Positions 2,470-30,164 of a stretch of DNA of 32,000 bases are shown in pieces. The DNA comes from Ferroglobus placidus DSM 10642. Lineage in GTDB: Archaea > Halobacteriota > Archaeoglobi > Archaeoglobales > Archaeoglobaceae. The stretch is from positions 1,410,001 to 1,442,000 of the forward strand of contig NC_013849.1 in assembly GCF_000025505.1 (NCBI RefSeq). Direction: 5' to 3'. The notes under the pieces were generated by a model that saw only the letters and a list, made by a program, of their open reading frames with translations, was not told the origin of the DNA and did no database searches. A program made the translations under genes and the position numbers. Each line of letters starts with the position of its first letter. The stretch's first letter is position 1.

Positions 2470-3414
2470 ATGAAAATAGAAAAAATCAAGCTGCCGAGCC
2501 CCTTTCCTCCGAATCACACGAACTCTTATCTAATAAACGATCTCCTTTTGGTAGACGCTGGCGTGAATTCTGAAGAGAACGTGAAAATCCTCGAAAAATT
2601 TAGCGATGACGTTATTCTCTTCCTAACTCACCCCCACGCCGATCACTTTGGTGCAGCTTATCTCTTCAAATTCGCTTACGGGCACGAAATAACGTGCAAA
2701 AGGCTGAAAGATGCCGAAGAAGAGTACTTCGAGTTGGTTTACCACCACTTCATCTCCGAGGGATTGCCGGAAAGTCTCGCTAAAAAAATGCAGGAGAGAG
2801 CAAAAGAGAGGTATAGGGGATACGTAATTCCTTGCGATAACTGCAAGAAAGCTCCGGAGAGAATAAAAGTGGACGGAGACGTTTTCGAGGTAATTCACAC
2901 TCCCGGTCACTCTTTCGGACACCTCTGCTTGTATCACAAGGAGAAGAAGATTATTTTCTGCGGAGACATAGTTCTTGAGGACATAACTCCAAATCCTGTT
3001 ATAGAGCCGATAAACGAGGAGAAAAGGCTTTGCGTTCTCGAACAATACGTAGAGACTTTGAGAAAACTTTACAGATTGGAAGTTAGAAAAGCTTACCCCG
3101 GGCACAGGGAAATAAGGAGAAACTGGAGAGAGCTAATTTTAAGCTACGTCGACAACTGGAGGAAGAGGAGTTTAGAAGTCTGGAAGCTCGCCGAGGGGAA
3201 AACGGCTTTCGAAATTGCAACGACTCTCTTCCCAGATATAAGACAGATATTCCTTGCGATGACGGAAACCATAGCTCACGCGGACTTTCTCCTTTCCAAC
3301 AACTTAATAGAGAAGAGAGGAATGAGATACTTCAGGTGCTCCGAAAGGGAGGAAGTTGAAGAAATGTGGAAAAGAATAGAAGAGAGGATAACGAGAGGAG
3401 GGCGAGATCGATAG
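2470..3414 (+). CDS. MBL-fold metallo-hydrolase
   Basis: HxHxDH motif (THPHADHFG) plus downstream TPGHSFGH and a D/H. The track ORF begins at 2221, but its first 83 codons are antisense to srp54 and low-complexity. The ATG at 2470 (MKIEKIKLPSPF...) is the first start outside srp54. Confidence 0.8.
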   Translation: MKIEKIKLPSPFPPNHTNSYLINDLLLVDAGVNSEENVKILEKFSDDVILFLTHPHADHFGAAYLFKFAYGHEITCKRLKDAEEEYFELVYHHFISEGLPESLAKKMQERAKERYRGYVIPCDNCKKAPERIKVDGDVFEVIHTPGHSFGHLCLYHKEKKIIFCGDIVLEDITPNPVIEPINEEKRLCVLEQYVETLRKLYRLEVRKAYPGHREIRRNWRELILSYVDNWRKRSLEVWKLAEGKTAFEIATTLFPDIRQIFLAMTETIAHADFLLSNNLIEKRGMRYFRCSEREEVEEMWKRIEERITRGGRDR

Positions 3415-3976
3415 CTTTTGGTTTCCTAATCTCGTAGTAAGCTTTTTCGCTGAAACCCTTGCTGTAAAGAGTTTCTCCCAAGCTTAGAGATCTTATTATC
3501 ACCGCTGCCACGAAAGCTTTAAGCATCGAATAGTATTTTCTCGCCCCTCCTCCGTAAAGAAATTTCACGTTTTCGAGGTCGTTAACAACTGTTGGAAGCA
3601 AAGCTAAGGGTATTCCGACGTAGCTGGCGAACTTTTCCGGAAATTTGAAGTAAATCAGCGCTCCGACGATTTCTGAGTACTTTGAAGACGTTATCAAAGC
3701 TCCGGAACAGAGAATACCTACGAAAGCGATAAGGACGTTGAAGCCGGAGATGAGGGAAGAGATGAAAAGAAGTAATAGAACTGGAAGGAAACCGAGAATA
3801 AACCTTAGAACTTTCCCTTTGGAGAAAAATGCGGAAATCGCTACCGAGCATAGAGATGCTGGAATGCTGAATCCGGAGAGGTATATTGAGGAAGTTAAAA
3901 AGAGCGAAGAGAGTAGAACGCACCTTCCTTCGAGGTTTCCTTCTTTGAAACCCTCTTTTAAGTTTTCGATTATCAT
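3332..3976 (-). CDS. ECF transporter transmembrane (T) component, CbiQ/BioN-like
   Basis: Multi-TM protein directly downstream of the ECF ATPase and BioY. The track ORF starts at a TTG at 3997. The ATG at 3976 forms an ATGA overlap with the ATPase stop (3973-3975), which suggests translational coupling. The family call rests on context plus TM pattern. Confidence 0.7.
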   Translation of the reverse strand: MIIENLKEGFKEGNLEGRCVLLSSLFLTSSIYLSGFSIPASLCSVAISAFFSKGKVLRFILGFLPVLLLLFISSLISGFNVLIAFVGILCSGALITSSKYSEIVGALIYFKFPEKFASYVGIPLALLPTVVNDLENVKFLYGGGARKYYSMLKAFVAAVIIRSLSLGETLYSKGFSEKAYYEIRKPKAIDLALLSLSSLLFFSTFLQLPPFRST

Positions 3977-10526: not shown

Positions 10527-12458
10527 GTGTTCGAAATCGTAGCTTTCCTGCTGGTTGTTGAGATAATAGGTTTCTCAGCTTACCCCCTCCTCAGAAAAGA
10601 GTTTGGGGAAGAGGCTTATTCTCTAAGCAAACCGTTTGGACTTGCAATTTTAACAGCTGTGGCTTTGTCTTTCTCTTTAGCAGGACTCAATTTTTTCCTC
10701 TCTTCACTTCTTGCTTTAATTTCTCTTGTGATTCTCGCAGTGATCAATCGGGATGGCTTTTACTTTGAAGGGGAAACTTTTAAAGAAGAGCTGGTCTTCT
10801 TAATTTCTTACTCCCTTTCTCTGCTTTACCTTTCACTCAAACCCGAAATTTACTTCGCTTACTCCGAAGACTTTACGGACTTCGCTTTTCTCAAATCCGT
10901 TTTACGTTTCGGAATTTTGAAGGACCCTTGGTTCGGAGGAGAGCAGATTTTTTACTACTTCTTCGGGCACGCTTTAGCGGCTTCTCTCATAAAGCTTTCG
11001 AGAGTTAAAGCTGAAGTCGGTTACAATCTGGCTGTGGCAGCCTATTACTCTCTTGCAGTAACGCTATCATACTCTCTCGGGAAAAGAACGACTAAAAAAG
11101 ACATTTACGGAATTCTTTCAGCTCTCTTCGTTTGCTTTGCAGGATTCTTCTCCGGATTTTTCCAGCTTGTCGCATTTCTCTTCAAAACACCGATTCTTGG
11201 TTATAAAGTCGCTAATACGACCCTTTTTCAATGGCTTCTCAATTTCGACTTTTCAGCAGCGACGAGAGTAATTGATGGGGCTGTTGTGTTTTACCCCTTC
11301 TTCACATTTCTTCAGGGGGATATGCATGCGCACTTCATGTCGATTCCATTTCAGCTTGCCATTCTTCTCTCATCTCTCTCCTTATACACCAGCTTTTCAT
11401 CGAAGAAGTTTGCAACGACGACTTTTCTCTTCACCTTTACCCTCGGAATTAACGCATGGTCGTTTGTATTGGCTTTTCTTCTCATCCCAATTCTCTTGCT
11501 TAAGAGTAAACGTTTTGCGATTCTTTCTGTTTTCTTGGCAGTTTTCATAACTTTGCTCATCCTTACTGGAATTTTGAAGTTCGTCGAGTCGAGAACCGAG
11601 TTTTTTGACTTTCTTCAGGTTTTTGCTCTCTTTTTAGCTTCCACGATCCTTTACACTGCGAAAAAATTAGATTGGAAAGAATTTCTTCTGATACTCTTCT
11701 TCATCCCTCTTGGCTTACTTTTAAACTTTCACTTGCTCTTTCTCTTCCCTCTTGCGTTTTTATTGCTGAGGGAGAAGAGCTTTGAGAACATCTTGCTCTT
11801 TGCTGGAACATTAACTATCCTTTTCTGCGAGCTTTTCTACTTCGACGACCCCCTCGGAAAGCCATTCGAAAGAATGAACACCGTCATGAAGCTTTACATC
11901 TCAGCTTGGATTTTCTGGGGAGTTGCTTCGGCAATTCATCTATCGAAGCTCGGAAGAAGTGCTTTAGCCGTTCTCGCCGTTTTCGCGTTCTCTCTACTTC
12001 ATCCCGTCGCATCCCTTATTGCCATGCCTAACAGCGAGTTGCTCGGAAATAGCGGCAAAGTCACTTTGGACGGAGCCGAGTGGTTGAAGGAAAAGCATTT
12101 AGAAGAGTACCTCGCCATAAAATGGCTTGAAAACAAAAGCGGAGTTGTTCTCGAAGCTCCGGGGGAGGCTTACACTTATTCTTCGAGAGTTTCGACTTTC
12201 ACCGGCTTGCCCACCGTGATTGGCTGGAGAACTCACGAAATCATGTGGGGAAGGAGTTGGGAGGAAGTGGAGGAAAGAATAAAAGAAGTGGACGAAATCT
12301 ACCTTAACGGGAGCTTGGAGCTGGCTAAGAAGTACGGAGTTAGATACGTGTTTTTCGGAGAAGTTGAAAGGATTAGGTACGATAAGAGCGAGCTCGACTA
12401 TCCTTGGCTAAAAGTTGTTTTTAAAAAAGGAAACGTCACGATTTACGAAGTTCCCTGA
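10527..12458 (+). CDS. DUF2298 (chlor_Arch_YYY-type) polytopic membrane protein, putative GT-C-like glycosyltransferase
   Basis: About 15 or more TM helices, then the conserved C-terminal block YTYSSRVSTFTGLPTVIGWRTHEIMWGR...KKYGVRYVFFGEVERIRY. The track start (TTG 10365) adds 54 non-hydrophobic codons upstream of a TATA box, so GTG 10527 (VFEIVAFLLVVEIIGFSAYPLL) is preferred. Confidence 0.7.
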   Translation: MFEIVAFLLVVEIIGFSAYPLLRKEFGEEAYSLSKPFGLAILTAVALSFSLAGLNFFLSSLLALISLVILAVINRDGFYFEGETFKEELVFLISYSLSLLYLSLKPEIYFAYSEDFTDFAFLKSVLRFGILKDPWFGGEQIFYYFFGHALAASLIKLSRVKAEVGYNLAVAAYYSLAVTLSYSLGKRTTKKDIYGILSALFVCFAGFFSGFFQLVAFLFKTPILGYKVANTTLFQWLLNFDFSAATRVIDGAVVFYPFFTFLQGDMHAHFMSIPFQLAILLSSLSLYTSFSSKKFATTTFLFTFTLGINAWSFVLAFLLIPILLLKSKRFAILSVFLAVFITLLILTGILKFVESRTEFFDFLQVFALFLASTILYTAKKLDWKEFLLILFFIPLGLLLNFHLLFLFPLAFLLLREKSFENILLFAGTLTILFCELFYFDDPLGKPFERMNTVMKLYISAWIFWGVASAIHLSKLGRSALAVLAVFAFSLLHPVASLIAMPNSELLGNSGKVTLDGAEWLKEKHLEEYLAIKWLENKSGVVLEAPGEAYTYSSRVSTFTGLPTVIGWRTHEIMWGRSWEEVEERIKEVDEIYLNGSLELAKKYGVRYVFFGEVERIRYDKSELDYPWLKVVFKKGNVTIYEVP

Positions 12459-12759
12459 GGCTCGAGCCGAAGAAAGCTGAGAGAATCGAGAGGATTAGCA
12501 GAAGAATTAAAGGAATTGCAGCCACCTCTGAAAACCTAACCCACGGCGGAAGCGAGGCTAAGAAAATCGCTGAAATTGCTGCGAAAGCAATTAAAGATAT
12601 CGAAATCGCTTTTAAGAGTTTTTCAGCAGCCAATCCTATTCCGGCGAAGGCTAAAATGAAGCCGACCCAGTGAAAGACAGAAATAACGAATCCGAAAGGG
12701 ATTAAAAGGTAAATTAGCTTTCTCACCAGCTCACCTCCTTGTAGTCGCAGTTTATCCAC
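12436..12759 (-). CDS. Small hypothetical membrane protein
   Basis: 107 aa with about three hydrophobic helices. No recognisable family. It overlaps both neighbours' ends. Confidence 0.4.
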   Translation of the reverse strand: MDKLRLQGGELVRKLIYLLIPFGFVISVFHWVGFILAFAGIGLAAEKLLKAISISLIAFAAISAIFLASLPPWVRFSEVAAIPLILLLILSILSAFFGSSLRELRKS

Positions 12760-17300: not shown

Positions 17301-17324
17301 TTTTAATGAAATAGCAATAATTTG

Positions 17325-20258
17325 ATGACAGGAAACTGGCGCGCATTTAACGAAATTGAAAACGGTGAAATTACTGACGCTTCTTTTGTAGCGAACATAT
17401 GGAGAGTATACAAAGGCGACGCGGACATCGACGAGAGGTATAAAGATGCCAAGAAGTTTTTCGAGAGGACATTCATTTCAGAGGGATTAGAAAATGTGTT
17501 AAAGACAGCTATTGGAAGAGTTTTCGAAGGTAAAGGTGAACCGGTAATTTTGCTTCGAACAACCTTTGGAGGAGGAAAAACTCACACTCTAATAGCTATA
17601 TATCACGCTCTAAAGAACCCACAAACGATCTCAAAATATATCCAAGTACCTGAAAAACGTTTTTCACCCACGTTTGTTGCGTTTGACGGAAGAGAGTTAG
17701 ATTCTCACCGTTTAAAGGAATATTATGGAGCAAATAACTTGTGGCAATTCCTGATGAATGAAATTGCAAAAAAGAGCGGATTTAAAGAGTTTGAAAAAAT
17801 TTGCAGCGATTATTCGAACCCAAAGGAACCTCCAGGAAGTGAAGTGTTAAGAGAAGCATTTAGAAAACTTGAAGACTACGGTCATCCAGTCGTCTTTTTA
17901 CTCGATGAAGTCCCGGACTACATCAACAAATTGCAGTTAAAAGACGAAACTGAAGCTACAGCAGTTATACACTTTTTGGACTCCCTCGCTAACGCTGTAT
18001 CTCATTGCAAATACTCGCTCTTAGTTTTGGCAATACCCGAAATAAAAATGCTAACACAAATTAACGAAGAGATCGTAAGCAATCTGACTGAAAGAGTTGG
18101 TAGAGTTGCTATACCGAGAAACATCGTCGGGAAAAAAGATGCGGCTCACGTGTTAATACGTGCGTTAATCAAAAAAGTTGAAAGTGAGAGTCACAGAGAG
18201 ATTGACTCGCTCTACGAAGTTTACAAGAACAACACCAGGAGTTTTCCAGCGAGCATCTCTACAGCTGACTACCTCGAAAAGATGAGAGCTTATTATCCGT
18301 TCCATCCCCAATATATAGAAGTCCTGTACGACAAAATCGCCAGCCTTGAAACCTTTCAAAGCACGAGAGACATCTTAAGATTGACTGCTCACGTTTTACA
18401 CGTTCTTTGTAGAAAAGACCAGAGAAGGATGGTCTTTCTTTCCGACATAAACATGGCTGAAAAGAGCATAATAGACGAGTTCCTCGATAGGCACGGTTTT
18501 GCAAATCTTAGGCGAGCGATTGAAGTAGACCTTGAGGTTGTGAAAAAGTTAGATGAGGAGAACGTTAGACGAAATCTTCCAGCTATCTTTGTCCCGTTAT
18601 ACTCTTCTATAGCAGTTTACAGCGTAGCCGGTGAAGCTGCCTCGGTTAAGGATTTAACACTCGCAACAATAAAGCCTGGATTGCATCCAAACTACGTGTT
18701 GGGTGCATTGGAGCAGATGATGGAGTCAGATGTAGCTTACGTTTACAAGCTGACGGTAGACGGTGAAACGAAATACACTATTAAAGAGAGAATAAGTTGG
18801 GTTAGACTTGTTGATATAAAATCAAGAGACGTCAGCAATGAAGATGCGAGACAAGAGTTCGACAGTAGGTTTAATGAAGCTTTGAGAAGGTGGGGACGAA
18901 GTATATTTTCGATAGTCTCGCTTGCGAAATCTCCAAGGGATGTTAAAGATGATGAGATTTTGAAGCTCGTATTCTTGGATCCAAACGTAGTTAGAGACGA
19001 AGAAGAAACTCTGAATTTCTTTGCGATCTATTTTGATCCGGCTAAACAAGAACTCAGGAAGTTCAGGAATTCTGTTGTGTTTGCATTACCGGACCAAAGA
19101 GTATACTCGAAGAGTTTAGAAATTGCAAAGAAAATAATTGCTGCTCTGAGAATCAGGGAAGCTAAAGAAACTTACGGATTATCAGAAGAGGACATTGAGG
19201 AGTTAACAAAGCAGATCAATAAATGGAGGGAAGAACTAAAAGAGCGTGCAGCAGCAATTTACAGCAGAGTGGCGTATCCAATAGGCGGAAAAAATGGCGG
19301 AATCCGATTTGAAATTAAAACTGTAAATCACACTAATCCGGTTGAAGCTGCGGCAAAACTTCTTGAAAGAGAAGAGAAGGTGATAAGAGACATATCTGAA
19401 ACGTATTTGTTCAGGTTAGTTAACGAGTATTATGCAGCGATGGGGGATGTTGAATTAAAAATTAAAGAACTTTCTGAGTTTTTTGCAAGGGATCCAGAAA
19501 AACCGTATTTGCTGAAAGCAGCATCAATAGTTTCCGATAAAATTGCCGAACTTGTCGAAAACGGGAAAGTCGTAGTTTTGAAGGGTGGGAAAGTTTATGC
19601 ATATCAGAGAGTTAAAGTCGAGGAAGACGATGTCGTCATTCCAGGGAAGATTGCTGAGCAAAAAGGATTGTGCGTTGAATACGATGGAAAATTCATACCT
19701 CCGCCACCCTCTGAATTAGCTAAGCCAGTATGGGACGAAAAAAGCAGAAAGTGGGTTGAAGGAGAAGTAACAGTGGAAGAAAAGGCTGAAGTTGAGGAAA
19801 GGGGAGAGGAGGTCGAGGAAAAAGTTGAGATTGAAAAACCTAAGAAATTGAAGTTAGAAAATATAAACCTGCCAGAACTAATTGACGCCATTAAAGGAGA
19901 AAGTGGGACGTTTTTAGGTTTTGAAATCAGTGGAGAAGCAACGAAGGATGTGCAGAATACTATTAACTTCTTGAAGTCTTTGAGTGTTCAGTTGAAGAAG
20001 CTCGAACCAGAATTTTCTATATCCGCTGAAGTTGGAGACGGAGACAACATAGATCTCAGATTGACTGGAGATGTGAAAGTTAGCGGAATTAAAGAGGTCC
20101 TCACAATGCTCGAAAGACTTGGCTGCAGAAACATTAGGTATGAGATCGTAATCAGCGAAGCAAAAGCCGAAGACTTGCTCGAAAGCTTGGATGTAAAATT
20201 GTTAAGAGAGAAGTATCGAAAAGAGAAATTCAGCGTGAGTGCAAGGGTGAAAGAATGA
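17325..20258 (+). CDS. DUF499-family P-loop ATPase (COG1483; BrxC/PglY-related, anti-phage-associated)
   Basis: 977 aa from ATG 17325 (track TTG at 17322). The N-terminal block FVANIWRVYKGDA...YKDAKKFFERTFISEGLENVL...ILLRTTFGGGKTHTLIAIYHAL (Walker A) and LLDEVPDY (Walker B) are characteristic of DUF499. Confidence 0.85.
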   Translation: MTGNWRAFNEIENGEITDASFVANIWRVYKGDADIDERYKDAKKFFERTFISEGLENVLKTAIGRVFEGKGEPVILLRTTFGGGKTHTLIAIYHALKNPQTISKYIQVPEKRFSPTFVAFDGRELDSHRLKEYYGANNLWQFLMNEIAKKSGFKEFEKICSDYSNPKEPPGSEVLREAFRKLEDYGHPVVFLLDEVPDYINKLQLKDETEATAVIHFLDSLANAVSHCKYSLLVLAIPEIKMLTQINEEIVSNLTERVGRVAIPRNIVGKKDAAHVLIRALIKKVESESHREIDSLYEVYKNNTRSFPASISTADYLEKMRAYYPFHPQYIEVLYDKIASLETFQSTRDILRLTAHVLHVLCRKDQRRMVFLSDINMAEKSIIDEFLDRHGFANLRRAIEVDLEVVKKLDEENVRRNLPAIFVPLYSSIAVYSVAGEAASVKDLTLATIKPGLHPNYVLGALEQMMESDVAYVYKLTVDGETKYTIKERISWVRLVDIKSRDVSNEDARQEFDSRFNEALRRWGRSIFSIVSLAKSPRDVKDDEILKLVFLDPNVVRDEEETLNFFAIYFDPAKQELRKFRNSVVFALPDQRVYSKSLEIAKKIIAALRIREAKETYGLSEEDIEELTKQINKWREELKERAAAIYSRVAYPIGGKNGGIRFEIKTVNHTNPVEAAAKLLEREEKVIRDISETYLFRLVNEYYAAMGDVELKIKELSEFFARDPEKPYLLKAASIVSDKIAELVENGKVVVLKGGKVYAYQRVKVEEDDVVIPGKIAEQKGLCVEYDGKFIPPPPSELAKPVWDEKSRKWVEGEVTVEEKAEVEERGEEVEEKVEIEKPKKLKLENINLPELIDAIKGESGTFLGFEISGEATKDVQNTINFLKSLSVQLKKLEPEFSISAEVGDGDNIDLRLTGDVKVSGIKEVLTMLERLGCRNIRYEIVISEAKAEDLLESLDVKLLREKYRKEKFSVSARVKE

Positions 20259-20284: not shown

Positions 20285-22903
20285 TTATTCGTTTATGAAC
20301 TCGTCGAGCGTTTTGATTCTATCTTTCTTTATTCTTATCCCGTTCGGTCTGATTGACAGCATTAGCAATCCTTGAATGGCCATTTTTTCTTCATCTTCCG
20401 GCTCGCCTTCCGCAAGGATTAGCTCGAGGAATTTCGTTGTAACTTCGTCGAGTTTATATCCATGATCCTCAAGAACTTTAATCGCCTCGTGGGGTCCGTT
20501 CGATAAGTATGCTTTGAGACTCGAAGCAATCGCGTCTACCAACCACTTCCCTTCTCCTTTTATCTCCGTAAGAGGCTTTATCTTGTAAGCTTTCGTGCCG
20601 TCCTTTTTCTTTGAAGCTGACGTGTATTTTTCGATGAATTCTTCGTGATCGTAGTTTAGTCCGTAGGCGAGGTAGCGAAGGGAGTCGTATTCTGGTTCGC
20701 CGTAAACTACCCTCGCCATGAGATACATCGCCGTTGCCTGATCGAGAGGGGCTGAAACAAGCTTTTCGAGAACGAGTTTCGAAACTTCGCTCGAAGCAAA
20801 TTGCAAGATTTCTTCGAGATCAACTTTCCGCCCGTCGTACGTGTAGAGGGGCCAGTGCTTCCCGACAACTTCGAAAGCAGCACCCATCCCCATGAGGATA
20901 GCGTCGGAGTAACTCAGGTTGTAGTTAATCGTCCTTTCCACTTCCTTTTCGATCGCTTTTCTGACTTCAGCTCTCAGATTAGCGTCCCAAATCCCTTCAG
21001 TCTCCTTCTCCTTCGGTTTTAACCCGAGGACGAGCATAGTCTTTACGGCGGCTTTTCCAACTATGTGAATACTCCTCGGCTGTTCACTGGCAAATCCCCA
21101 GACGGCGAAGGGGATAAAGCCAGCGTCTAAGGCGGCGTTGAGCATGACTTTCAATCCTTTGAGGCTCCTGTGAGCATACATGAAGACCGCTATTCCATCT
21201 GGCTTTAGCGAAGCTTTTACAAGTTCCAGAACTTCTTTAAGGCTCGACTCGAACCATTTCTCGTCTCTCTTTCTGGTTTTGTTTACTACTATTTCATCCT
21301 CTTTCGGAGTCAGCTCAGTGGAGAACGCCTCTGGATAAAGGTGTCCTATGCTCCTCTTGTGCCAAACGTAGAAGAAGTCAGCGAGCTCCGAATACTGGAC
21401 GTTCGCGTAATAGGGAGGATCTGTTACAACGTAATCGAACTCTCCGAGTTCGAGATACAAACTTGGATCTTTAGCGTTGCCGAGAACGACTTTGACGTCT
21501 CCTTTCGCATCTTTTAGAAGGTTTACGATCTTTTTGAGGGCTGAAACCACTCCTACATTACTTAGCAATGCCCATTCCAATAAACAGTTTTTAGATAATA
21601 AATCTCCTTCAGCAAAGTCTTGGCCCATTCTATAAGCGTGCCGATTAAAAGTATCTCTAATTGACCCTTTGTTATAGGAATCCCAAGAAGTTAAGACTGA
21701 GTTGTAATCAAGCAGCTTTCCGTGGGCTAAAGCCAGATACGTCACGACAGCCTTTGCGTATTCTTCGTCTTCTCCCTCGTTTAAGATTTTTTCGTAAGCT
21801 TCTCTGATGAGTTTAACGATTGTTGCATGAGTCAAAAGCTGTCGAGCGTTGAAGAGCTTGTAGAACTTGTTTATACTCCTCAAAAGAACTTCTCTCGTTT
21901 TATCACCTTCAGGAATTTCCTCTGTGGGGATTAAATCTTTTTCAACGAATTCCTGCCACCTTTCTCTCAAGACCTCCCCAGCTCTCTTAGTAGCTTCAAC
22001 CATTTCGTCTGTTGGCTCCACGAATCTTCCATCGGAAAGTTTGACAGCTGCTAATATTGCAGGATGGTGTCCGTACATTTCTTCCTTCTCCCACCTGTCC
22101 ATTTCCATCCTGTATTGAGCAGACATCTCTTTGGAGGTTAACGTGTGCCCGTCAGGACAGTTCAAACTCTTAACCCCAGTTCCGACTTTATCACCCTCTC
22201 CTTTCACAACCCTAACAACTGGTCTCTCTCCGTCATAATCAAGTTTCAAAGCATACTTGTTCTCTTTAGACAAGATGGGGTGAGAAATTGCTGGAACGAG
22301 TTTTCCGCAGCGACATCTGTAAACCCTGATCCAGATGTAGTTTGCTGGTTCACCTTCTGGGTGCCTCGGGTAGTATTCTGCGAGCTCTTCTCTAACTCTT
22401 TCCAGCAACCACCTGCCCCACTTTTCGACATCTTTAACGAGCTTTTCTCTATACTTTAGGGGGTATTCGAGCGTTGCTTTTAGCAAAATGTAAGCTATCG
22501 GGTTGTATTCGACAGCCACGACCTCCTTAAATCCGAGTCTAAGAGCCTCGAAGGGAATTGATCCACCTCCGGCGAAAACGTCAAGTAGTCTCGCACTCTT
22601 AACGTCCGCATGCTCAAAAACCCAGTCTAAGTTTGGAGAGTAATTGTAAGCTGGTCTGTCGGGGCGTTTGTTTCTGTAAAGTAGGGAGACTGCCTGTTTA
22701 AACTCTTGAAGGAACTTTTTGTCCGGCTCTTTCTCAACTTTAACGGTTGAAGCAGCTATTGTAACTCTCGAGCCTATTAGGGGGCGGCGAGCCCACCAGA
22801 GGTGAAGGTAAAACATTGGTGGGGAAATAACTGCCCGTTCTCTAATCGATTCTTCAGAAGTCTCGAACGTCGGGAAGTAGTATTTGATAAGCCTTTCTGA
22901 CAT
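20285..22903 (-). CDS. DUF1156-family DNA methyltransferase with internal Zn-ribbon (COG1743)
   Basis: 872 aa. DUF1156 hallmark HLWWARRPL, SAM motif I LLDVFAGGGSIPFEA, Cys-ribbon YRCRCGK...LNCPDGH, catalytic motif IV VVTDPPYYANVQY. Confidence 0.9.
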   Translation of the reverse strand: MSERLIKYYFPTFETSEESIRERAVISPPMFYLHLWWARRPLIGSRVTIAASTVKVEKEPDKKFLQEFKQAVSLLYRNKRPDRPAYNYSPNLDWVFEHADVKSARLLDVFAGGGSIPFEALRLGFKEVVAVEYNPIAYILLKATLEYPLKYREKLVKDVEKWGRWLLERVREELAEYYPRHPEGEPANYIWIRVYRCRCGKLVPAISHPILSKENKYALKLDYDGERPVVRVVKGEGDKVGTGVKSLNCPDGHTLTSKEMSAQYRMEMDRWEKEEMYGHHPAILAAVKLSDGRFVEPTDEMVEATKRAGEVLRERWQEFVEKDLIPTEEIPEGDKTREVLLRSINKFYKLFNARQLLTHATIVKLIREAYEKILNEGEDEEYAKAVVTYLALAHGKLLDYNSVLTSWDSYNKGSIRDTFNRHAYRMGQDFAEGDLLSKNCLLEWALLSNVGVVSALKKIVNLLKDAKGDVKVVLGNAKDPSLYLELGEFDYVVTDPPYYANVQYSELADFFYVWHKRSIGHLYPEAFSTELTPKEDEIVVNKTRKRDEKWFESSLKEVLELVKASLKPDGIAVFMYAHRSLKGLKVMLNAALDAGFIPFAVWGFASEQPRSIHIVGKAAVKTMLVLGLKPKEKETEGIWDANLRAEVRKAIEKEVERTINYNLSYSDAILMGMGAAFEVVGKHWPLYTYDGRKVDLEEILQFASSEVSKLVLEKLVSAPLDQATAMYLMARVVYGEPEYDSLRYLAYGLNYDHEEFIEKYTSASKKKDGTKAYKIKPLTEIKGEGKWLVDAIASSLKAYLSNGPHEAIKVLEDHGYKLDEVTTKFLELILAEGEPEDEEKMAIQGLLMLSIRPNGIRIKKDRIKTLDEFINE

Positions 22904-22930: not shown

Positions 22931-24073
22931 TTAAAGACTCTTTAAAAAGCTTATGAGGTCGACACTCTTTAACTGCTTGACTTTCGTGAGTATTTTCAGC
23001 TTGCTACTATTTGCAACGAGCCTTTTGTTTGATACGTATTTCAGCACGTCTTCTTCCAGCGCAATTCTCACCCTTTCAGTTTCTATACCAATCTGCTCGT
23101 AGTTGAATAGCTTTTGAGCAGCCATTCTTTTCTTCTTGGATTGGGAAGTTAAAGTTTTGAGAGGGACTGCCGTATCTTCCGGATAAATTTCCTCAACTTC
23201 CTTTAACCCAACTTTCTGATAAGCGTAATCGTCTTTGTTGAACAGCCTTAAGTCGCTAATTTTTTCCTCTACTCCGTAATCCCTCGTCCCAAGGTGATTG
23301 TCTGCGATTGCATCGAGACCCAAACCGAAAGACAGAACATCTTGAGCTAAGATCTCACTGCTCTTTTTGCTCGGCTTTCCGATGTTAACGTTTACGCTGT
23401 AAATAAAAGCGTCAACGTCTTTTTGGTGGAGCAGGTTCTGTATCTGAGATATCTGCTGGTAATGAGTAAAGGGTGTTCGTCCAGCAAAATCCAAGCAAAA
23501 AGCTTTGATACCATGCTCAAAATACAGATCAAGGAGTTCGGAAATTTTGACTGGCGGCAGAGTTATAGGAATCAAACCCATTATCGGTTTTCTCTGCTTG
23601 GACCCCTCAGCTTTTTCAAGAAAACTCTCTACTATCGAGAAATACCTCTCAATGTCCTTTACGGTTGCGACTTTGTGAACTCTCTCGACAGTAGGAGGAA
23701 CGTAAAAATCGAAGACGCTCTCGGTATCTCTGATGAAATCCAATTCGGAATCGGTAACTTCAAACGTTTTTAACGCGGGAACGAAAATAATCGGTGTGCT
23801 TTTAGAAGGGACATTGTGTAAAGCTCTCTTGATGTCCTTATTCAGTCTGTCTCTGCTTTCAACCTTTCCCGACACGAGTTCGATTAGTTTCTCCTTAGTG
23901 AATGTCTTGTAAACTTCTCCAACGTATTCCTCCCAGTTCAGCTTAATATCTGACTTAAAGTATCTGAGGTTAATAGCTTTGATCGGAGTTTTGAAGCTTT
24001 TACCTCTGATTTTAACCTTCTTGTGAGAATAGAACGTCTTCTCGTCTTCTCTTACAACTTCAATTTTTAACAT
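22931..24073 (-). CDS. Hypothetical 380-aa protein, first gene of the operon with the DUF1156 methylase
   Basis: A long ORF with protein-like composition, ending 27 nt upstream of the methylase start on the same strand. It shows regular alternation of hydrophobic beta-like and amphipathic helix-like segments (PIIFVPAL / VFDFYVPP / PIMGLIPITL / IKAFCLDFAG / AFIYSVNVN / LDAIADNH). No family recognised. Confidence 0.75.
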   Translation of the reverse strand: MLKIEVVREDEKTFYSHKKVKIRGKSFKTPIKAINLRYFKSDIKLNWEEYVGEVYKTFTKEKLIELVSGKVESRDRLNKDIKRALHNVPSKSTPIIFVPALKTFEVTDSELDFIRDTESVFDFYVPPTVERVHKVATVKDIERYFSIVESFLEKAEGSKQRKPIMGLIPITLPPVKISELLDLYFEHGIKAFCLDFAGRTPFTHYQQISQIQNLLHQKDVDAFIYSVNVNIGKPSKKSSEILAQDVLSFGLGLDAIADNHLGTRDYGVEEKISDLRLFNKDDYAYQKVGLKEVEEIYPEDTAVPLKTLTSQSKKKRMAAQKLFNYEQIGIETERVRIALEEDVLKYVSNKRLVANSSKLKILTKVKQLKSVDLISFLKSL

Positions 24074-24112
24074 CGAAATGTTTTATAACGACAACCCTTA
24101 AAACTTTTCCTA

Positions 24113-24706
24113 ATGGCTATTGAAGCGGATCATTTGAAACATCTGAGCCCAATACAAGCTCTTATTCTATTGCTGCTTGACAGCGAAAACGCTCAACCAG
24201 TTAAAGGAAGAACTTGGCTTCAGAAGGAGATGTTCCTAATATTAAGCAATGCTGGCAAAGAAATTGAAGAAGAGGCACAGTTCGAACCTCACCACTTTGG
24301 ACCCTACAGCGAGGTCGTGGAGTCAGAATTAGCGAATCTAAAATTACTTGGACTTGTGGACGAAAATAAAGAGATACGGATAACTAAGGCTGGTAAAAAG
24401 ATTGCAGCAGAACTGAGAAAATACGTCAGCCCGAAATTTCTTGAGTTCATATCCCAAGTGAAAAGAGAACTAAATGATCTTACCGAAGACGAGTTGCTCG
24501 CCTATATATACTTTACTTTCCCCGAAATGACGAGCGAATCGAAAGCCTTAGAGAGAATTTTAAAGAAGAGGAAGTGGCTTGCTTTATCGCTCTATCGAAA
24601 AGGAAAAGTCAGCTTATCTAAAGCATCACAAATCGCTGGCGTAAGTGTTAGCGAGTTCTCTAAATTTTTAAGAAGTAAAAATATTGGGGTCTCTCTGGGG
24701 TGGTAA
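24113..24706 (+). CDS. Composite antitoxin: N-terminal Panacea/DUF4065-like plus winged-helix region fused to a C-terminal UPF0175 (COG2886) antitoxin domain
   Basis: 197 aa. N-terminal part: WLQKEMFLIL...FEPHHFGPYSEVVESEL (LQK..F / F.p..yGPy pattern of the SocA/Panacea domain) and LKLLGLVDENKEIRITKAGKKI (wing). C-terminal part: ALSLYRKGKVSLSKASQIAGVSVSEFSKFLRSKNIGVSL, a typical UPF0175 domain. Confidence 0.65.
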   Translation: MAIEADHLKHLSPIQALILLLLDSENAQPVKGRTWLQKEMFLILSNAGKEIEEEAQFEPHHFGPYSEVVESELANLKLLGLVDENKEIRITKAGKKIAAELRKYVSPKFLEFISQVKRELNDLTEDELLAYIYFTFPEMTSESKALERILKKRKWLALSLYRKGKVSLSKASQIAGVSVSEFSKFLRSKNIGVSLGW

Positions 24707-25199
24707 CATCCCGGAGAGCTTAATTTTGGATACAAGCGTGCTTATTGCGTTTTATTCAGAGCTGGCTCGTCCGGAATTGCTGTTATCTCTCCACGATCAT
24801 GGTTTTCGCTTGTATGTCCCTAAAGCCGTGTATGAGGAATTTATGGATGACGTAAACTTCAAACATTTAGAGACTCACGTAAAAAACGGATATTATACGA
24901 TACTCGGGAATATTCCCGAAAACGATGTTTACAGACTTAAACTGAAGTTCCCAAGTCTTGGAGATGGCGAAATTGAAGTTATCTGGTGGGGGCTAAAGTT
25001 TGAGAACTGTTTTTGCGTGTTGGACGATAAAAAAGCTAACAAGAGCGCAAAAAGCATGGGCTTGAAAGTAACTGGAACAATAGGTATTTTGCGGATTTTG
25101 GCTGAAATGGGGGTTATAAGTGAGAGTGAAAAGCGAAAATTGTGTGTAGAATTAATTGAGCGCGGATTTCGATTTCCGAAAGAGAAGTGTTTCGAGTAG
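24684..25199 (+). CDS. PIN-domain toxin, DUF3368/COG2405 type
   Basis: LILDTSVLIAF, YEEF, GDGEIEVIWWG, CVLDDKKANKSAKSMGLKVTGTIGILRIL match the COG2405 PIN family that partners UPF0175. The start is ambiguous: TTG 24684 (23-nt overlap with the antitoxin) or TTG 24726. Confidence 0.8.
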   Translation: MGSLWGGNIPESLILDTSVLIAFYSELARPELLLSLHDHGFRLYVPKAVYEEFMDDVNFKHLETHVKNGYYTILGNIPENDVYRLKLKFPSLGDGEIEVIWWGLKFENCFCVLDDKKANKSAKSMGLKVTGTIGILRILAEMGVISESEKRKLCVELIERGFRFPKEKCFE

Positions 25200-25210
25200 T
25201 AATTTATTTA

Positions 25211-25246
25211 TCGATCAGATTTTGATTAATACATAATGCTGATCGA
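25211..25246 (+). promoter_or_regulatory. 8-bp inverted repeat TCGATCAG / CTGATCGA bracketing the start of the nuclease gene, just downstream of a TATA box
   Basis: Arms at 25211-25218 and 25239-25246. The TATA-like TTTATTTA at 25203-25210 lies about 27 nt upstream of ATG 25236. Confidence 0.3.
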
Positions 25247-26912
25247 AGACCACATTAAGAATCTGACAAAGCAAGAAGGTTGTGCTAAAGCAGCATCTGA
25301 AATTTTAAGTAGAACAGCACACTTGATAAAAGCAAGAAGTGTCGCTTACGGAGCTGCTCATTGTATTTTCAAGGCTCGTCTCGTCGAAGCGTTTGGGGCG
25401 AGTGGTTTCTTTCAGAGCATAATCCCCGGAAAAGGTAATCTCGTTCACCAAATCCTCGCTATTGCTTTTCCTCGAGCGTTCGTCGATAAAATAAAAAGAA
25501 ATTTGCAAGAACTCAAATACTACGTTGACGAAGCTGAAAAACTCTTAGAAGAATATGGAATGATTTCTGATCCTTCTCCAAATCTAATCTCTACAGCAAA
25601 AAATGAGTCTCTGACAATGCTAAAACACGCTTTAAAAGTCATTCCAGAAATAGCGGAAAAAATAGGATTGGAACTCGAGAGAGCGAGAGTTTACGCAGAA
25701 ATGCAGTTGATGAGTTACAAACTTCACGTTTGGGGTGTAATCGACGCACTCGTCGAAGATAGGATTAATAGAAAAGCAATCGTGATTGACTGGAAGACTG
25801 GGCATCAACTTGAAAGTAAGGCTGCACAAATAAGTGATCCAGACATAGCCCAGGTTTGCTGCTACGCGTTACTTGAAGCTGATAGACTCGAATTTGAAGA
25901 TCCAAGAAAACCAGTTTTAGAAGGAGAGATCGTTCCCTTAATTATCAGACCCCGCGGAAATATACCAGTGGCGAGTATAAGCCCAGTATACGAAACTATG
26001 AAGAGAAGGACAACCTTAGAGGAATACCTCAATAACATAATCTTGGCAGCAGAGCACCTGACTCTCGTCTTAAGTAACGTAAGAAGACTTATAGGACCAA
26101 CTTTCGAGAATATATGTAAATTTAAAACTCGGCAAGGCAGAAGAGCAAGCGCTTTTCGATATACTCCCTACAACCTGCCAAAAGGAAACCCAAAGACCAA
26201 TAGTTACCGATGCAAAATATGTGGATTAACTGAGGAATGTCTTTTCTACATAGGAAGCTACGAAGAACCCGAAGAGATTGATAGACTCGCTTGGAGGTCG
26301 AGATACGCAATTTATGCGATAAGAGAGAACGCACTAATGCCCTACAAGGAAATCCACGAAAAAATAAGTTACTATAATTTCGACGTTAGGAGTTTTGAGC
26401 AAGGAGAAACTTTCACACTCGAAAGTGGAAACAGAATAGACGTGTTTAGCGATGCTGAAGCATCTGAAGACGGAATAATCCTTAGAAGAGAAGTTAGAGA
26501 AAGAGAAATAAGAGAGGAGAGGATAATTTCGGTAAGAGAAGGTAGGCCAGTGGCAGTTTTTTTCTACGAGGACGTTAAAAGCCCCTTACTAAGGTTGAGC
26601 TTCGTCGGTAGGGTTGACGAATTTCAGCAGGAGGAAGATGAAGTCTCTATTCTTGTAAGCGCACCGAACATCCCCTCAAGGCTACACCATATCCTCTTCA
26701 AGTTTTACCTTGAAAATTGGAGAGATCTGACACTCAGCATACTGGCTGTCGAGACAAACGTAGATTTGACACAAATGGAACTCAGGGCGATAGACGCTTT
26801 TCAGAGAGGAACAAAAAGGATGAAAGAAAAACTCTATAATCTTGAAGAGAACTTAGAAAATCTCAAAAATGAAGCTCTTGCCATACTCTTTGGTTCTCTA
26901 CCTTTGAGGTGA
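25236..26912 (+). CDS. Cas4/RecB-family PD-(D/E)XK nuclease with Fe-S Cys cluster, plus a C-terminal beta-barrel/stalk-like region (N-terminal half of a split Dna2-like protein)
   Basis: 558 aa. Motif order: AAHC...R, GNLVHQIL, E(MQL), GVIDALVED, IVIDWKTG (D-x-K), QVCCYALL (QhxxY), then CKICGLTEEC (C-x2-C-x5-C). The remaining roughly 210 aa are strand-rich (ETFTLESGNRIDVF...RPVAVFFYED...LSFVGRVDEF...VSILVSAP) and end in a helical tail. Confidence 0.8.
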   Translation: MLIEDHIKNLTKQEGCAKAASEILSRTAHLIKARSVAYGAAHCIFKARLVEAFGASGFFQSIIPGKGNLVHQILAIAFPRAFVDKIKRNLQELKYYVDEAEKLLEEYGMISDPSPNLISTAKNESLTMLKHALKVIPEIAEKIGLELERARVYAEMQLMSYKLHVWGVIDALVEDRINRKAIVIDWKTGHQLESKAAQISDPDIAQVCCYALLEADRLEFEDPRKPVLEGEIVPLIIRPRGNIPVASISPVYETMKRRTTLEEYLNNIILAAEHLTLVLSNVRRLIGPTFENICKFKTRQGRRASAFRYTPYNLPKGNPKTNSYRCKICGLTEECLFYIGSYEEPEEIDRLAWRSRYAIYAIRENALMPYKEIHEKISYYNFDVRSFEQGETFTLESGNRIDVFSDAEASEDGIILRREVREREIREERIISVREGRPVAVFFYEDVKSPLLRLSFVGRVDEFQQEEDEVSILVSAPNIPSRLHHILFKFYLENWRDLTLSILAVETNVDLTQMELRAIDAFQRGTKRMKEKLYNLEENLENLKNEALAILFGSLPLR

Positions 26913-26916
26913 GCGT

Positions 26917-28428
26917 ATGGCAATCTACTATCTTGATGATGGCTTGAAAGAAGCTTTTAGATTGGCAAAAAGAAAAGAAAAGTGGGCACTACTTGAATCT
27001 CAGAAAAAAGCTACAGAACTCATGAAAAAGACTGTTGATGGTGAACTTAGCCTTGCAGCAGTTCAAGGACCTCCGGGGACAGGCAAAACAAGTGTTGTCG
27101 AAGCTTTTGCCAAGGAAGAGTTACCAGATTTCGTAACACAATCAGAAAACGAGCTAATTTTGTATATTGCTCCAACGAATCACCTCGTTTATGAAGCTTT
27201 CAAGAGAATTTCAGCCCAATTAATCAAAAAAGGATTTGATATCCAGTCTCTCTTGAGCGTTGTGCGAGTATACGGTTCGAAAATTAAACCTATGAAGGAA
27301 AAAGAGGTGATAATCGGAGATAAAAAACTCGAGAGAGACGATCTAAATAGACTCGTGAGCAACGTAGATAACAATGTCCGGATAATTTTTGCGACAGAAT
27401 TCCAGAGAGTTTCAAGTAGACTTGAAGTTGAACCAAAAAGGATACACATAGTTGCTGACGAGGCAAGTAAGTCTCCATATTTCAGAGTTTTTCTACCTTT
27501 AGCTGAAAAAATAGCTAAGAATCCAGAAGAATACTATCCTTACACTCTCCTCGTTCTTGGAGATCCACAACAGGCAATTACAGTTCCAGAGGAGTTTACT
27601 ATAATGGATGTCCCGCTTCTCATGAAATTAACAGAGAGAGTTCTCAAAGAGAACGACTTGAAAAAAGATTGTTGGGTTATGCTCGACACGACCTTCAGAC
27701 TACCACGTCCTTCAGAAGACCCTATAAGCCACGGATTTTATAGAGGAAAACTACATGCGCACTATACCTCAAGAGAACGATTAGAGATTATTAAAGACTC
27801 GATATTAGACAACATCAGCAGAATTACTTCTGCGCTTGACAAAGCGGGTGTTCGAGCAACTTCACTTGACGTTAAAAAGATCGTTGACGGAATAGAGGAG
27901 GCTATAACTTCTAACATTCCGATAGTCGTTGTAAAAACTCGTCCTTTTAAGAGTGGAGACACTTACGACGAAGAGCGCGTTAAAAAGGCATTTATAATTT
28001 CCTCTATTTTTCAATTGGCATCTCACTTTTCTGGATATAGTTTCAGCGTAACTACTACTGCTCCATACTGTGATATCGTTGATTCAATAGCATTTAAATT
28101 TCACAGAAGATTTCACAACTTTGGATCGATACGAGCACCGAGGGCAGTTACCGTGCAATCACTTATAGGGGGAGAGAGCGATGTCATTGTGGCTCCACTC
28201 GGTAAAGAGTGGTTACCAAGTGAGATTCGTTACCACCCTTCGGAAGAATTTACAACAATATACGCAAGAGAACCGGAATTGCTTAACGTTCAAATGAGCA
28301 GACATCGATCACTTATGGTTGTAATTGGCAATACTGACAGATTAATGAACCAGAGAGAAAGAAGGATTCAAAGGACTGTAGAAAGGTTGGAAGAGCTTGA
28401 AGGTAAAGGAACTTTAATTATCTCTTAG
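26917..28428 (+). CDS. SF1B helicase, Dna2/Upf1-like (AAA_11/AAA_12 type)
   Basis: 503 aa. Motifs: I VQGPPGTGKTS; Ia YIAPTNHLV; II IVADEASKS; III LVLGDPQQ; IV LDTTFRLPRPSEDPISHGFYRGKL; V VTVQSLIGGESDVIV; VI LLNVQMSRHRSLMVVIGN. A GAGGTGA Shine-Dalgarno sequence spans the upstream stop, and the gap is 4 nt. Confidence 0.9.
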   Translation: MAIYYLDDGLKEAFRLAKRKEKWALLESQKKATELMKKTVDGELSLAAVQGPPGTGKTSVVEAFAKEELPDFVTQSENELILYIAPTNHLVYEAFKRISAQLIKKGFDIQSLLSVVRVYGSKIKPMKEKEVIIGDKKLERDDLNRLVSNVDNNVRIIFATEFQRVSSRLEVEPKRIHIVADEASKSPYFRVFLPLAEKIAKNPEEYYPYTLLVLGDPQQAITVPEEFTIMDVPLLMKLTERVLKENDLKKDCWVMLDTTFRLPRPSEDPISHGFYRGKLHAHYTSRERLEIIKDSILDNISRITSALDKAGVRATSLDVKKIVDGIEEAITSNIPIVVVKTRPFKSGDTYDEERVKKAFIISSIFQLASHFSGYSFSVTTTAPYCDIVDSIAFKFHRRFHNFGSIRAPRAVTVQSLIGGESDVIVAPLGKEWLPSEIRYHPSEEFTTIYAREPELLNVQMSRHRSLMVVIGNTDRLMNQRERRIQRTVERLEELEGKGTLIIS

Positions 28429-29544
28429 CTCTTAGTCTAATTAAATATAGCCCTTTGCCCTTACCCCTCAATCCGAGCAACCTCAATTCTGCTTTTAAAC
28501 CGAAATCCTCAGCAATTCGTTTCAAAAATTCGTGTGTTGGGATGTATGTCCCTTTGAATATTGAATCTCCTATTGTATACCAAGCTTCCCATGCGAGTCT
28601 CTCCGAAACGAGTTCTAAATGTCTCTCCATATAGTAGAAGTATTGGGATAGAAACACATGGTATTTTCTGTCACTCCTGATCTCAAAAATTTTGTCTAAA
28701 ATCCATTTTCTTTCAGTCTTTTTTTCCATTTTCTCGCACTCGCTTCGCATGCCGGGATTTGCAAACTTCTGAGCATTCCAAGATCCTTGGAATCTTTAGC
28801 CAATCCAGCCCAAAGTATGTGTAGCTGTGTATGTCTTATGTAGTCTATGTTATTTGCAAATGGCGGACTTGTCAAAATACCGTCAAATGCTTTTGGTAAC
28901 CAAACGCTTGAGTCAGCTAAAACTAAATCAATATTTCCATCATTTCCGTAGCATTCCAAATCTGAATATGCCTGAAGAAACAACTCTTTGAACTCTTCGA
29001 AAATTTTATGCTTACTCGATTTACAAACAATCTTTCGATACCTTGGAGCGGGGGATTTCCTTAACCTTGAATATTTTTCAGCAACTTTCGCTAAAATCGT
29101 TAACAAAAGACTATCGTTCTTGAAATCGTTAATAAGGGATCTTATTTTGCCTAACGCTTCCAATTGGGTGGGTGAATGGTAGTTCTTTAATCTTTCTGAT
29201 GGGATTAACATCTTGTAGTCATCGATATTTGAGTAAGCTTCTAAGAACTCTTTTTTATCCAAACGAGGTTTGTCTACTTTTGATTTTGTTACAAGAAGTG
29301 ACCAAGGGTTCGAATCGATGCCTACACAATCAATACCTCTTTTTTTCGCCTCTACAGCGACAGTCCCTGAGCCGACAAAAGGGTCTAATACGAGATTGCC
29401 ACGACTTTTACTAAATTCTTGAAAAAATTCGTTAACCAATTGCTTAGTCATTCCATGTTCGCAGAATACTAAAATTCTGTGTATTCGTTCGTTTTTCCAA
29501 GGATTTCTTGGAAAACGGTTTTCTTGCATGAGGTCCCGTATCAC
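28418..29544 (-). pseudogene. DNA methyltransferase (motif I ... motif IV order, SPPF catalytic motif) split by a frameshift at an A7 tract; a pseudogene or a slippage-dependent gene
   Basis: ORF 28696..29544 (282 aa) starts at GTG 29544, preceded by GGAGGGTG. It carries VLDPFVGSGTVAVEA (SAM motif I) and ILTSPPFANNIDY (motif IV). ORF 28418..28750 (110 aa) reads like the missing C-terminal MTase core (RKYHVFLSQYFYYMERHLELVSERL...GDSIFKGTYIP...IAEDFGLKAE). The frames overlap at 28696-28750 around T7/A7 at 28719-28725. One extra A would fuse them into about 375 aa. Confidence 0.75.
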
Positions 29545-29832: not shown

Positions 29833-30066
29833 CGTGACTGTCTGGCAAATAAATCTGCGAACTTTTCGAGTTCGTGTATTCTCAGGAACATCCCTCTCTG
29901 CATGTTCGAGTATGCACTCTCGGCATATATAGTACTTTTGGAAAATTTATATAAATTCATGAAAAATGCTCTAAATCTACAAACCTTAATTTCGCTTAAA
30001 TTTGGCAAATTAGCTCTCAAAATCACCAATTGGTTGAAAACAGGTAGGATTTACTCGAAATTTTGA

Positions 30067-30139
30067 TGGGTCCGCCCGGATTCGAACCGGGGACCTCCTG
30101 CGTGTGAGGCAGGCGTCATAACCACTAGACCACGGACCC
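30067..30139 (-). tRNA. tRNA-Val (anticodon CAC)
   Basis: The minus strand reads GGGTCCGTGGTCTAGTGGTTATGACGCCTGCCTCACACGCAGGAGGTCCCCGGTTCGAATCCGGGCGGACCCA. It folds as a cloverleaf: 7-bp acceptor GGGTCCG/CGGACCC, anticodon stem CCTGC/GCAGG with loop CTCACAC, T arm CCCGG-TTCGAAT-CCGGG, discriminator A. No CCA is encoded. Confidence 0.92.
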
Positions 30140-30164
30140 AGCAGTACTGTGTTTTACTCTTAGC

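Follow-up and report, generated by a model that had tools for sequence, protein, structure and literature searches.

The window analysed here is a stretch of 32,000 nucleotides from the archaeon Ferroglobus placidus DSM 10642 (RefSeq assembly GCF_000025505.1, contig NC_013849.1, positions 1,410,001 to 1,442,000), and all coordinates given below are counted from its first letter. It contains a gene for a 380-amino-acid protein that is a zinc-less member of the tRNA-guanine transglycosylase (TGT) fold and belongs to a large unannotated family. The gene is inherited together with two others, one for a PIN nuclease and one for a UPF0175 protein with two domains. The reading favoured here, held with slightly less than even confidence, is that the three genes form a double toxin-antitoxin-like unit serving as an accessory or backup effector in a defence island, and that the target of the TGT-like protein is a flipped base. 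Within this reading, toxicity, the question of which component neutralises which, the substrate, and the chemistry are points that we infer. The elements of the module are the following:

22931..24073, minus strand: zinc-less TGT-fold protein of 380 amino acids, ATG start; third gene of the module.
24074..24112, no strand: divergent spacer of 39 bp with two back-to-back TATA-like boxes.
24113..24706, plus strand: extended UPF0175 protein of 197 amino acids, with an N-terminal DarG-C/Panacea/Abi_alpha-like domain and a C-terminal UPF0175 helix-turn-helix (HTH) domain.
24684..25199, plus strand: DUF3368 (COG2405) PIN-like nuclease, predicted toxin; the longest open reading frame (ORF) has 171 amino acids and starts at a TTG.

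The original prediction, made from the sequence of the window, described a 380-residue ORF followed, after 27 nucleotides and on the same strand, by a DUF1156 methylase gene. This arrangement is correct, the strand, which it left unstated, being the minus one. Its description of the product (one cysteine, a lysine-rich helical tail, and no recognised motif) agrees with the composition of the protein and with the absence of any match in Pfam, NCBIfam, PADLOC, or PHROGs; a sequence search of the Protein Data Bank (PDB) with the single protein returned only noise. The basic isoelectric point (9.1) and the lysine-rich tail would fit nucleic-acid binding. The ORF is a true gene, because it has about 550 homologous clusters with near-invariant polar residues; a chance ORF is ruled out by the size and conservation of this family.

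A word-indexed search with the 380-amino-acid protein retrieved 12 clusters, and an exhaustive HMMER search with the profile of these clusters retrieved 551 representatives (clusters at 50% identity) at E ≤ 1e-3, 159 of them at E ≤ 1e-30. When the word-indexed search was repeated with the deep alignment, one new protein was gained. Nearly all members have 360–420 amino acids and lack fused domains. When 125 members were scanned against Pfam with E values of up to 10 allowed, neither a recurrent family nor TGT came up. The sources that can be named are archaeal, namely Archaeoglobus and metagenome-assembled genomes (MAGs) of Nanoarchaeota and Njordarchaeota, as well as loci carrying MCM, PolB/NurA, or prefoldin/aIF-2B genes; genes for aIF2-gamma, SRP54, and RNase HII are present in the window too. 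The family is apparently mostly archaeal. No viral copies of the gene were found by tblastn against phages or by a scan of IMG/VR, the latter made with the close clade only. In an alignment of 136 members, P30 and N228 are invariant (the latter in 136 of 136), and T29, E53, P127, G166, P169, Y184, D245, G252, D254, G257, H260, F278, Y283, N324, and K350 are conserved in at least 90%; D122, D195, R276, Y285, E331, and K162 are strongly conserved too. The near-invariant polar residues among these (E53, D122, D195, N228, D254, H260, R276, Y283, Y285, and K350) argue for a functional pocket.

Known roles of the TGT fold are the insertion of queuosine and archaeosine into tRNA and, as found recently, the modification of DNA with 7-deazaguanines by DpdA (PMC10164549). 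The AlphaFold model of the 380-residue protein built from the 136 sequences is confident (predicted local distance difference test, pLDDT, 94.7; predicted template modelling score 0.92; all five models with a pLDDT of at least 93.9) and forms a (beta/alpha)8 barrel, one of the two folds that the original prediction had thought compatible with the alternation of strands and helices. All of the top 50 Foldseek matches of this model in the PDB are tRNA-guanine transglycosylases, aligned over the full length (about 400 columns) with E values of 9e-9 to 3e-7 and template modelling scores of 0.52–0.66, among 165 matches with E ≤ 1e-3. They include mouse and human QTRT1, the TGT of Zymomonas, and ArcTGT of Pyrococcus, and the best one, 7ovo_C, is QTRT1, the catalytic subunit. 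The passing speculation of the original prediction about a transglycosylase-like enzyme was in this sense right at the level of the fold. A mediocre model from 12 sequences (pLDDT 71), which the present one supersedes, had given weak Foldseek matches (E around 3e-3) to a mixture of TIM barrels (aldolase, RuBisCO, DHODH, and TGT) and uninformative viral matches in BFVD. The family shares with bacterial TGT, QTRT1, and ArcTGT (PF01702) the full-length barrel, a three-stranded N-terminal lid, the Ins8 hairpin and its subdomain, and the terminal helix. The lid comprises the DSSP strands 2–9, 16–22, and 25–29, ahead of the barrel strand 31–35. Such a lid is found in TGTs and is missing from DpdA (PMC10164549), and in this feature the modelled protein resembles the tRNA-type enzymes, not DpdA.

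The sequences themselves contain only echoes of this relationship. The best match of the family profile among 177,635 PDB sequences is ArcTGT (1iq8), which is not significant (E = 0.74) and consists of three collinear pieces; one spans the "GK.IETP" hairpin, and a second runs from the zinc motif as far as the "HNL" helix. A greedy local hhalign comparison with an alignment of seven TGT sequences gave a collinear alignment of 309 columns (E = 0.07, with a probability of less than 1%), pairing TP of the family with TP of the TGTs, FD..P with FDECTP, MGxIP with FGIIQ, AKD with PED, G-h-D with G-I-D, and xN with HN. The echoes common to both groups are TP, FD...P, G-h-I-(Q/P), and G-h-D-h-h, with xN standing for HN. 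In global mode hhalign found nothing against the same alignment, and the comparison with E. coli Tgt alone was not significant (probability 1%). It is important to note that these hhalign alignments, none of them significant, served only as a guide for the mapping of motifs, and that the TGT profile of seven sequences is shallow, because DpdA is so distant that tblastn with E. coli Tgt did not reach it. As far as the predicted fold is concerned, the relationship with the TGTs can be regarded as established; by sequence statistics it is probable, though not proven.

The family departs from the TGTs at the zinc site. TGTs and DpdA all conserve two catalytic aspartates and a zinc site, CxCx2Cx22H (PMC10164549), whereas the zinc motif is present in none of the 136 members, 37 of which have at most one cysteine. 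The HMMER alignment to 1iq8 places Y297-P298-x-D300 of the family opposite C281-P-x-C284, and F323-N324 opposite H307-N308, so that all four ligand positions are replaced (by x at 295, Y/F at 297, D/E at 300, and F at 323), with the 22-residue spacing retained in the window protein. As judged from this alignment, the zinc subdomain is kept and its metal site is gone. The active site would also be altered. In the nucleophile region the family motif G-h-D254-h-h-G257-x-x-H260 pairs with G-I-D261-M-F-D264-C-V of the TGTs (E. coli numbering) in the weak alignment of E = 0.07. According to this pairing, made without three-dimensional superposition, the nucleophile of strand beta8 (D264 in E. coli, D256 in DpdA) corresponds to G257, a glycine in 129 of the 136 members; the conserved D254 sits three residues before it. 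For the general acid, which follows beta3 (D89 in E. coli, D95 in DpdA) and was mapped by the order of secondary structures only, no conserved acid is found at the end of the strand 95–101, where residue 99 varies (E31/S20/P14/A13/D13). On the other hand, D122 pairs with the base-recognition aspartate of the TGTs (D143 in E. coli) and is conserved in 120 of 136 members, and R276, F278, Y283, and Y285 are retained in the hairpin that matches Ins8, which contacts tRNA in TGTs (PMC10164549). The family has its own invariants, E53, D195, N228, H260, R276, and K350. The family is not a canonical TGT, and it has probably lost the catalytic aspartates of one.

The genomic context also differs from that of the TGTs, being toxin-antitoxin-like and not translation-related. 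The 197-amino-acid protein encoded across the spacer matches UPF0175 (4.6e-10), Abi_alpha (4e-4), and SocA_Panacea (0.05) in Pfam, and PDC-M19A (7e-14) and the C-terminal half of DarG (4e-7; 1e-4 in NCBIfam) in PADLOC; it is predicted to be a fused antitoxin and regulator. Its N-terminal domain of about 140 residues, from which the PDC-M19A and DarG matches come, is conserved in all the extended UPF0175 proteins, with the motifs G..WLQKE.F and ND....E.L...Y. SocA_Panacea was matched over the full domain by three of eight such proteins (E 0.02–0.05, about 15 bits against a Pfam cut-off of 25.7), and Abi_alpha, also over the full domain and below threshold, by two of eight. A profile search with the N-terminal domain found at least 309 clusters that share its combination with UPF0175. 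All 120 matches listed have 179–225 amino acids, and most of them carry a precomputed UPF0175 assignment (PF03683), some together with PF24001 (DUF7317). Where names are given, these are "predicted HTH domain antitoxin", "YwgA", or "UPF0175 family protein", and the sources are MAGs of Asgard archaea and Nitrososphaerota. The Panacea domain is a promiscuous toxin-binding antitoxin domain (PMC8832971). The N-terminal domain resembles the direct-binding toxin neutralisers PanAT (Panacea/DUF4065) and the C-terminal domain of DarG, but its Panacea matches are sub-threshold, and neither the fusion with UPF0175 nor the pairing with a TGT-fold protein was found in the literature searched, nor was any mention found there of DUF7317 or of a TGT-like gene together with COG2405.

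The third gene matches DUF3368 (9e-8) and PIN (0.007) in Pfam, and PDC-S70 (2e-17) in PADLOC. The acidic motifs of its PIN domain (lDtS, P..V..E, GE.E, and DD..A) are conserved in 13 loci, and the nuclease is probably active, as far as can be told from these residues. The start of this gene is ambiguous: the 171-amino-acid ORF from TTG overlaps the upstream gene by 23 nucleotides, while the gene caller gave a product of 118 amino acids that would drop the N-terminal motif with the catalytic aspartate (lDtS); the longer form, which keeps it, is supported by alignment with relatives. UPF0175 (COG2886) has been described as a small HTH antitoxin that occurs only with COG2405 PIN toxins (PMC2701414, PMC5499597). 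The loci described here agree with these type II pairs in the adjacency of the two families, usually with the antitoxin first, and in the conserved acids of the PIN domain; they differ in the extra N-terminal domain and in the constant presence of a TGT-fold gene of 380–400 amino acids, neither of which is described in those two works. The "three-component COG2405 systems" of PMC5499597 consist of an HTH protein and a DUF955 protease, and are not this module.

The linkage among the three genes was examined in 35 further loci, gathered by looking up exact proteins and by scanning genomes and metagenomes, and scored with hidden Markov models. The extended UPF0175 gene and the DUF3368 PIN gene are both present in 23 of the 24 distinct loci with enough upstream sequence, the lone exception (L051) being a truncated copy beside a hydrolase gene. 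The linkage persists in members with 21–28% identity (P0040, P0060, P0090, P0150, and P0155). In the window, the TGT-like gene diverges from the UPF0175–PIN pair across the 39-bp spacer, while in the distant clade the three genes lie on a single strand in the order UPF0175, PIN, TGT-like, with 4-bp overlaps between operon genes in L031 and L033. An arrangement of the trio as a single operon is frequent. A mirror-tree analysis over 20 loci gave correlations of 0.96 for the extended UPF0175 and TGT-like proteins, 0.90 for PIN and TGT-like, and 0.93 for UPF0175 and PIN, values that none of 2000 permutations reached. The spacer contains two TATA-like boxes, TTTTATAA at 24082–24089 and TTAAAA at 24098–24103, the latter on the opposite strand; both boxes lie about 25 nucleotides from their respective ATG. 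Comparable spacers of 39–50 bp are found in L001, L004, L008, L011, L014, and L016. This suggests a shared control region giving two leaderless transcripts and serving as an operator for the UPF0175 HTH domain. The putative promoter role of the boxes is read from general knowledge of archaeal promoters.

Outside the window's clade, the trio is found among housekeeping genes, near an IS605 OrfB gene (L057), or in a defence island of another kind (L031), which contains GmrSD, a Schlafen/AlbA_2 protein, and a type I restriction-modification system. In L057, a high-GC metagenome contig, the IS605 OrfB/TnpB-like transposase gene (11417-12727, minus strand) lies about 0.9 kb downstream of the trio, with one gene, for undecaprenyl diphosphate synthase, in between; this neighbourhood hints that the module is mobile. 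In L016 (positions 3150-3821), and also in L017–L019, a DUF5131 gene (PF07505, phage Gp37/Gp68-type) directly follows the gene of a distant TGT-like member, and a phage-integrase gene lies further along the L016 locus.

The sequence of events that would account for these observations begins with a family descended from the TGT fold that lost its structural zinc site and remodelled its active site. Its product would be the third component, probably the effector, of a self-contained tripartite toxin-antitoxin-like module. The UPF0175 half of the antitoxin would neutralise the PIN nuclease, autoregulate it, or do both, a pairing already predicted in the literature, whereas the extra DarG-C/Panacea-like domain would neutralise the TGT-like protein. 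Once released, this protein may target a base flipped out of tRNA or DNA and, for instance, excise or exchange it through a non-canonical chemistry. In the window's clade, the module lies inside a DUF499/DUF1156 (Hma/BR) defence island, where it would serve as an accessory or backup effector; the TGT-like gene would have a promoter of its own and would probably be transcribed together with the methylase gene. A more specific form of this proposal, which is possible but rather on the doubtful side, is that the protein is the first TGT-derived toxin or immune effector: zinc-independent, with a re-invented site (E53, D122, D195, N228, and H260, plus the R276/Y283/Y285 hairpin), excising or swapping tRNA or DNA bases, and restrained by a Panacea-like domain fused to the PIN antitoxin. 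The whole would then be a two-toxin, one-antitoxin unit that is also plugged into Hma/BR islands.

Several observations weigh against the favoured interpretation. The homology with TGTs is not statistically significant by sequence, either in hhalign or in the Pfam scan, where 0 of the 125 members matched TGT. The Panacea matches of the N-terminal domain fall below the Pfam threshold, and the mirror-tree correlation comes in part from a common host phylogeny. TGT-type chemistry is unlikely, because both canonical aspartates are absent in the best, though weak, alignment, and the protein could be non-catalytic. Finally, in the window's clade the TGT-like gene diverges from the antitoxin–PIN pair and adjoins the methylase gene, a layout that would also allow the protein a role with the Hma/BR system in this clade alone.

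Some of these points lead to an alternative that is unlikely but has a real claim, in which the protein is a non-catalytic, TGT-derived subunit that binds nucleic acids or bases, in a role like that of QTRT2, and that senses a tRNA, a modified base, or a nucleobase-like ligand in order to target or trigger the PIN nuclease. The glycine at the nucleophile position and the poor conservation of the general acid would be expected of such a subunit, as would the conservation of D122 and of the Ins8-like hairpin, and the tight linkage to an active-looking PIN nuclease would give it a partner to control. Nevertheless, the conserved E53, D195, D254, and H260, with the fully invariant N228, resemble a catalytic or metal site more than a plain binding surface, the closest structures are catalytic TGTs, QTRT1 included, and the alignment in which the aspartates are missing has weak statistical support.

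All defence-type genes of the window lie inside a low-GC stretch at about 17.3–30.1 kb, between an ABC-transporter operon and a tRNA-Val gene, with a GC content of 0.37–0.41 against 0.44–0.46, which looks like an island integrated at the tRNA gene. Its genes are arranged in the order DUF499 ATPase, DUF1156 methylase, trio, PD-(D/E)XK nuclease and helicase, and second DNA methylase. The features other than the trio are the following:

17322..20258, plus strand: DUF499 AAA+ ATPase (HmaC/BR ATPase), convergent with the methylase; PADLOC HmaC 7e-66, DUF499 1e-22.
20285..22903, minus strand: DUF1156 N6-adenine DNA methylase (HmaB/BR-MTase) of 872 amino acids; Pfam DUF1156 1e-8 and MethyltransfD12; PADLOC HmaB 4.5e-54.
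25236..28428, plus strand: PD-(D/E)XK nuclease (558 amino acids) and superfamily 1 (SF1) AAA_11/AAA_12 helicase (503 amino acids); Pfam PDDEXK_1 9e-10, AAA_11 5e-11, and AAA_12.
28418-29544, minus strand: second N6/N4 DNA methylase, split into two ORFs of 110 and 282 amino acids.
30065-30140, minus strand: tRNA-Val(CAC), which bounds the low-GC stretch.

The set corresponds to Hma (DUF499, DUF1156, and helicase), renamed "DUF499-centred BREX-related (BR)" in a 2026 survey, according to which embedded RNases, PIN included, act as backup effectors in BREX/BR loci (PMC12839542). The island shares with these systems the DUF499 ATPase, the DUF1156 methylase, and the nuclease/helicase. The TGT-like protein is neither a core nor a described component of them, has no PADLOC match, and is mostly found without Hma/BR genes. 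The methylase also matches NCBIfam DUF1156_antiphage (1.6e-46), under the curated cut-off of that model. The separate nuclease and helicase, likely the nuclease/helicase arm of the island, have weak PADLOC matches to MkoA/MkoC of Mokosh; in L001 and L014 a SNF2+NOV_C fusion takes their place, and the separate genes may represent a variant BR/Hma architecture. The second methylase gene lacks 1 bp in a run of A (ARKWKKK|TERKW) and is split there, whereas L005, an independent assembly 99.98% identical, has an intact gene of 375 amino acids; the split stems either from a sequencing error in the homopolymer or from a real frameshift, which may be phase-variable. Outside the island, a broken penicillin amidase gene (PF01804; 12723-14144, minus strand; three short ORFs of 117, 116, and 179 amino acids) is likely a pseudogene, since it is fragmented identically in L005.

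The original prediction had taken the TGT-like gene to be co-transcribed with the DUF1156 methylase gene. Within the window co-transcription is plausible, because the genes share a strand and are separated by a 27-nucleotide gap (GTCGTTTTTCGGGGGTGGAATTCGAAT) with a Shine-Dalgarno-like element, GGGGGTGG, about 10 nucleotides before the methylase ATG; a run of five T is also found inside this gap. Across the family, the co-occurrence of the two genes is restricted. A DUF1156 methylase or DUF499 ATPase gene is found near the TGT-like gene in nine loci only (the window, L001, L004, L010, L012, L014, L039, L040, and L046), whose TGT-like proteins are all at least 34% identical to that of the window, and neither gene was found near more distant members (L003, L008, L016, L020, L030, L031, L033, L047, L052, L054, and L057). 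The arrangements differ among the nine, the trio lying between the DUF499 and DUF1156 genes in L014 and L046. The methylase link is specific to the window's clade, and the methylase is a downstream neighbour and a component of the host island, not a universal partner of the family.

This restriction bears on the proposal of a DNA-modifying role, in which the protein would be a DpdA-like DNA transglycosylase, or another DNA-modifying enzyme, that marks self DNA together with the DUF1156 methylase of the Hma/BR system. DpdA (PDB 7ui4) indeed shows the TGT fold in a defence or restriction-modification-like context, the gene lies directly upstream of the methylase gene and is probably co-transcribed with it, and the module recurs inside DUF499/DUF1156 loci. 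TGT homologues have also been recruited to another BREX-related system (PMC12839542), although that system is a different, HerA-centred one and its homologues are ordinary TGT/DpdA relatives. DpdA, however, keeps both aspartates and the zinc site and lacks a lid, and is accompanied by DpdB, DpdC, and genes for preQ0 synthesis (PMC10164549). The family described here has the lid, lacks the zinc site in all 136 members, and does not conserve the aspartate pair in the best alignment; a Pfam scan of ORFs from the window detected no genes for preQ0 synthesis, DpdB, or DpdC, and in most of the family the methylase is not nearby. The DNA-modifying role entertained in the original prediction is weakened accordingly, and we regard it as improbable.

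Still less probable is that the protein is a housekeeping enzyme of tRNA modification or 7-deazaguanine salvage that lies in the island by chance. The fold and the lid are typical of TGTs that act on tRNA, but the low-GC island bounded by a tRNA gene, the strict linkage to a toxin-antitoxin-like pair, the copies beside an IS605 OrfB gene and in another defence island, and the loss of the zinc site throughout the family speak for a different function. The role assigned to the protein in the original prediction, that of the restriction or effector partner of the methylase in a restriction-modification-like pair, is barely credible, given that, apart from the adjoining position on the same strand, no nuclease motif or fold was found, the constant partners are the PIN and extended UPF0175 proteins, the methylase is no family-wide neighbour, and the island already has its own PD-(D/E)XK nuclease and helicase, replaced in relatives by the SNF2+NOV_C helicase-nucleases.

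What is new here is a zinc-less branch of the TGT superfamily and a tripartite form of the PIN–UPF0175 toxin-antitoxin systems. For annotation, several hundred archaeal proteins now listed as hypothetical become recognisable as parts of one module, together with the proteins of about 200 amino acids named "UPF0175 family" or "predicted HTH domain antitoxin", and the extra genes in some Hma/BR islands can be read as an inserted accessory module and not as core restriction-modification partners. If the proposed interpretation is true, the family of about 550 clusters would define an undescribed tripartite toxin-antitoxin architecture, and the TGT fold would be extended to a role as toxin, effector, or sensor in the conflict systems of archaea.

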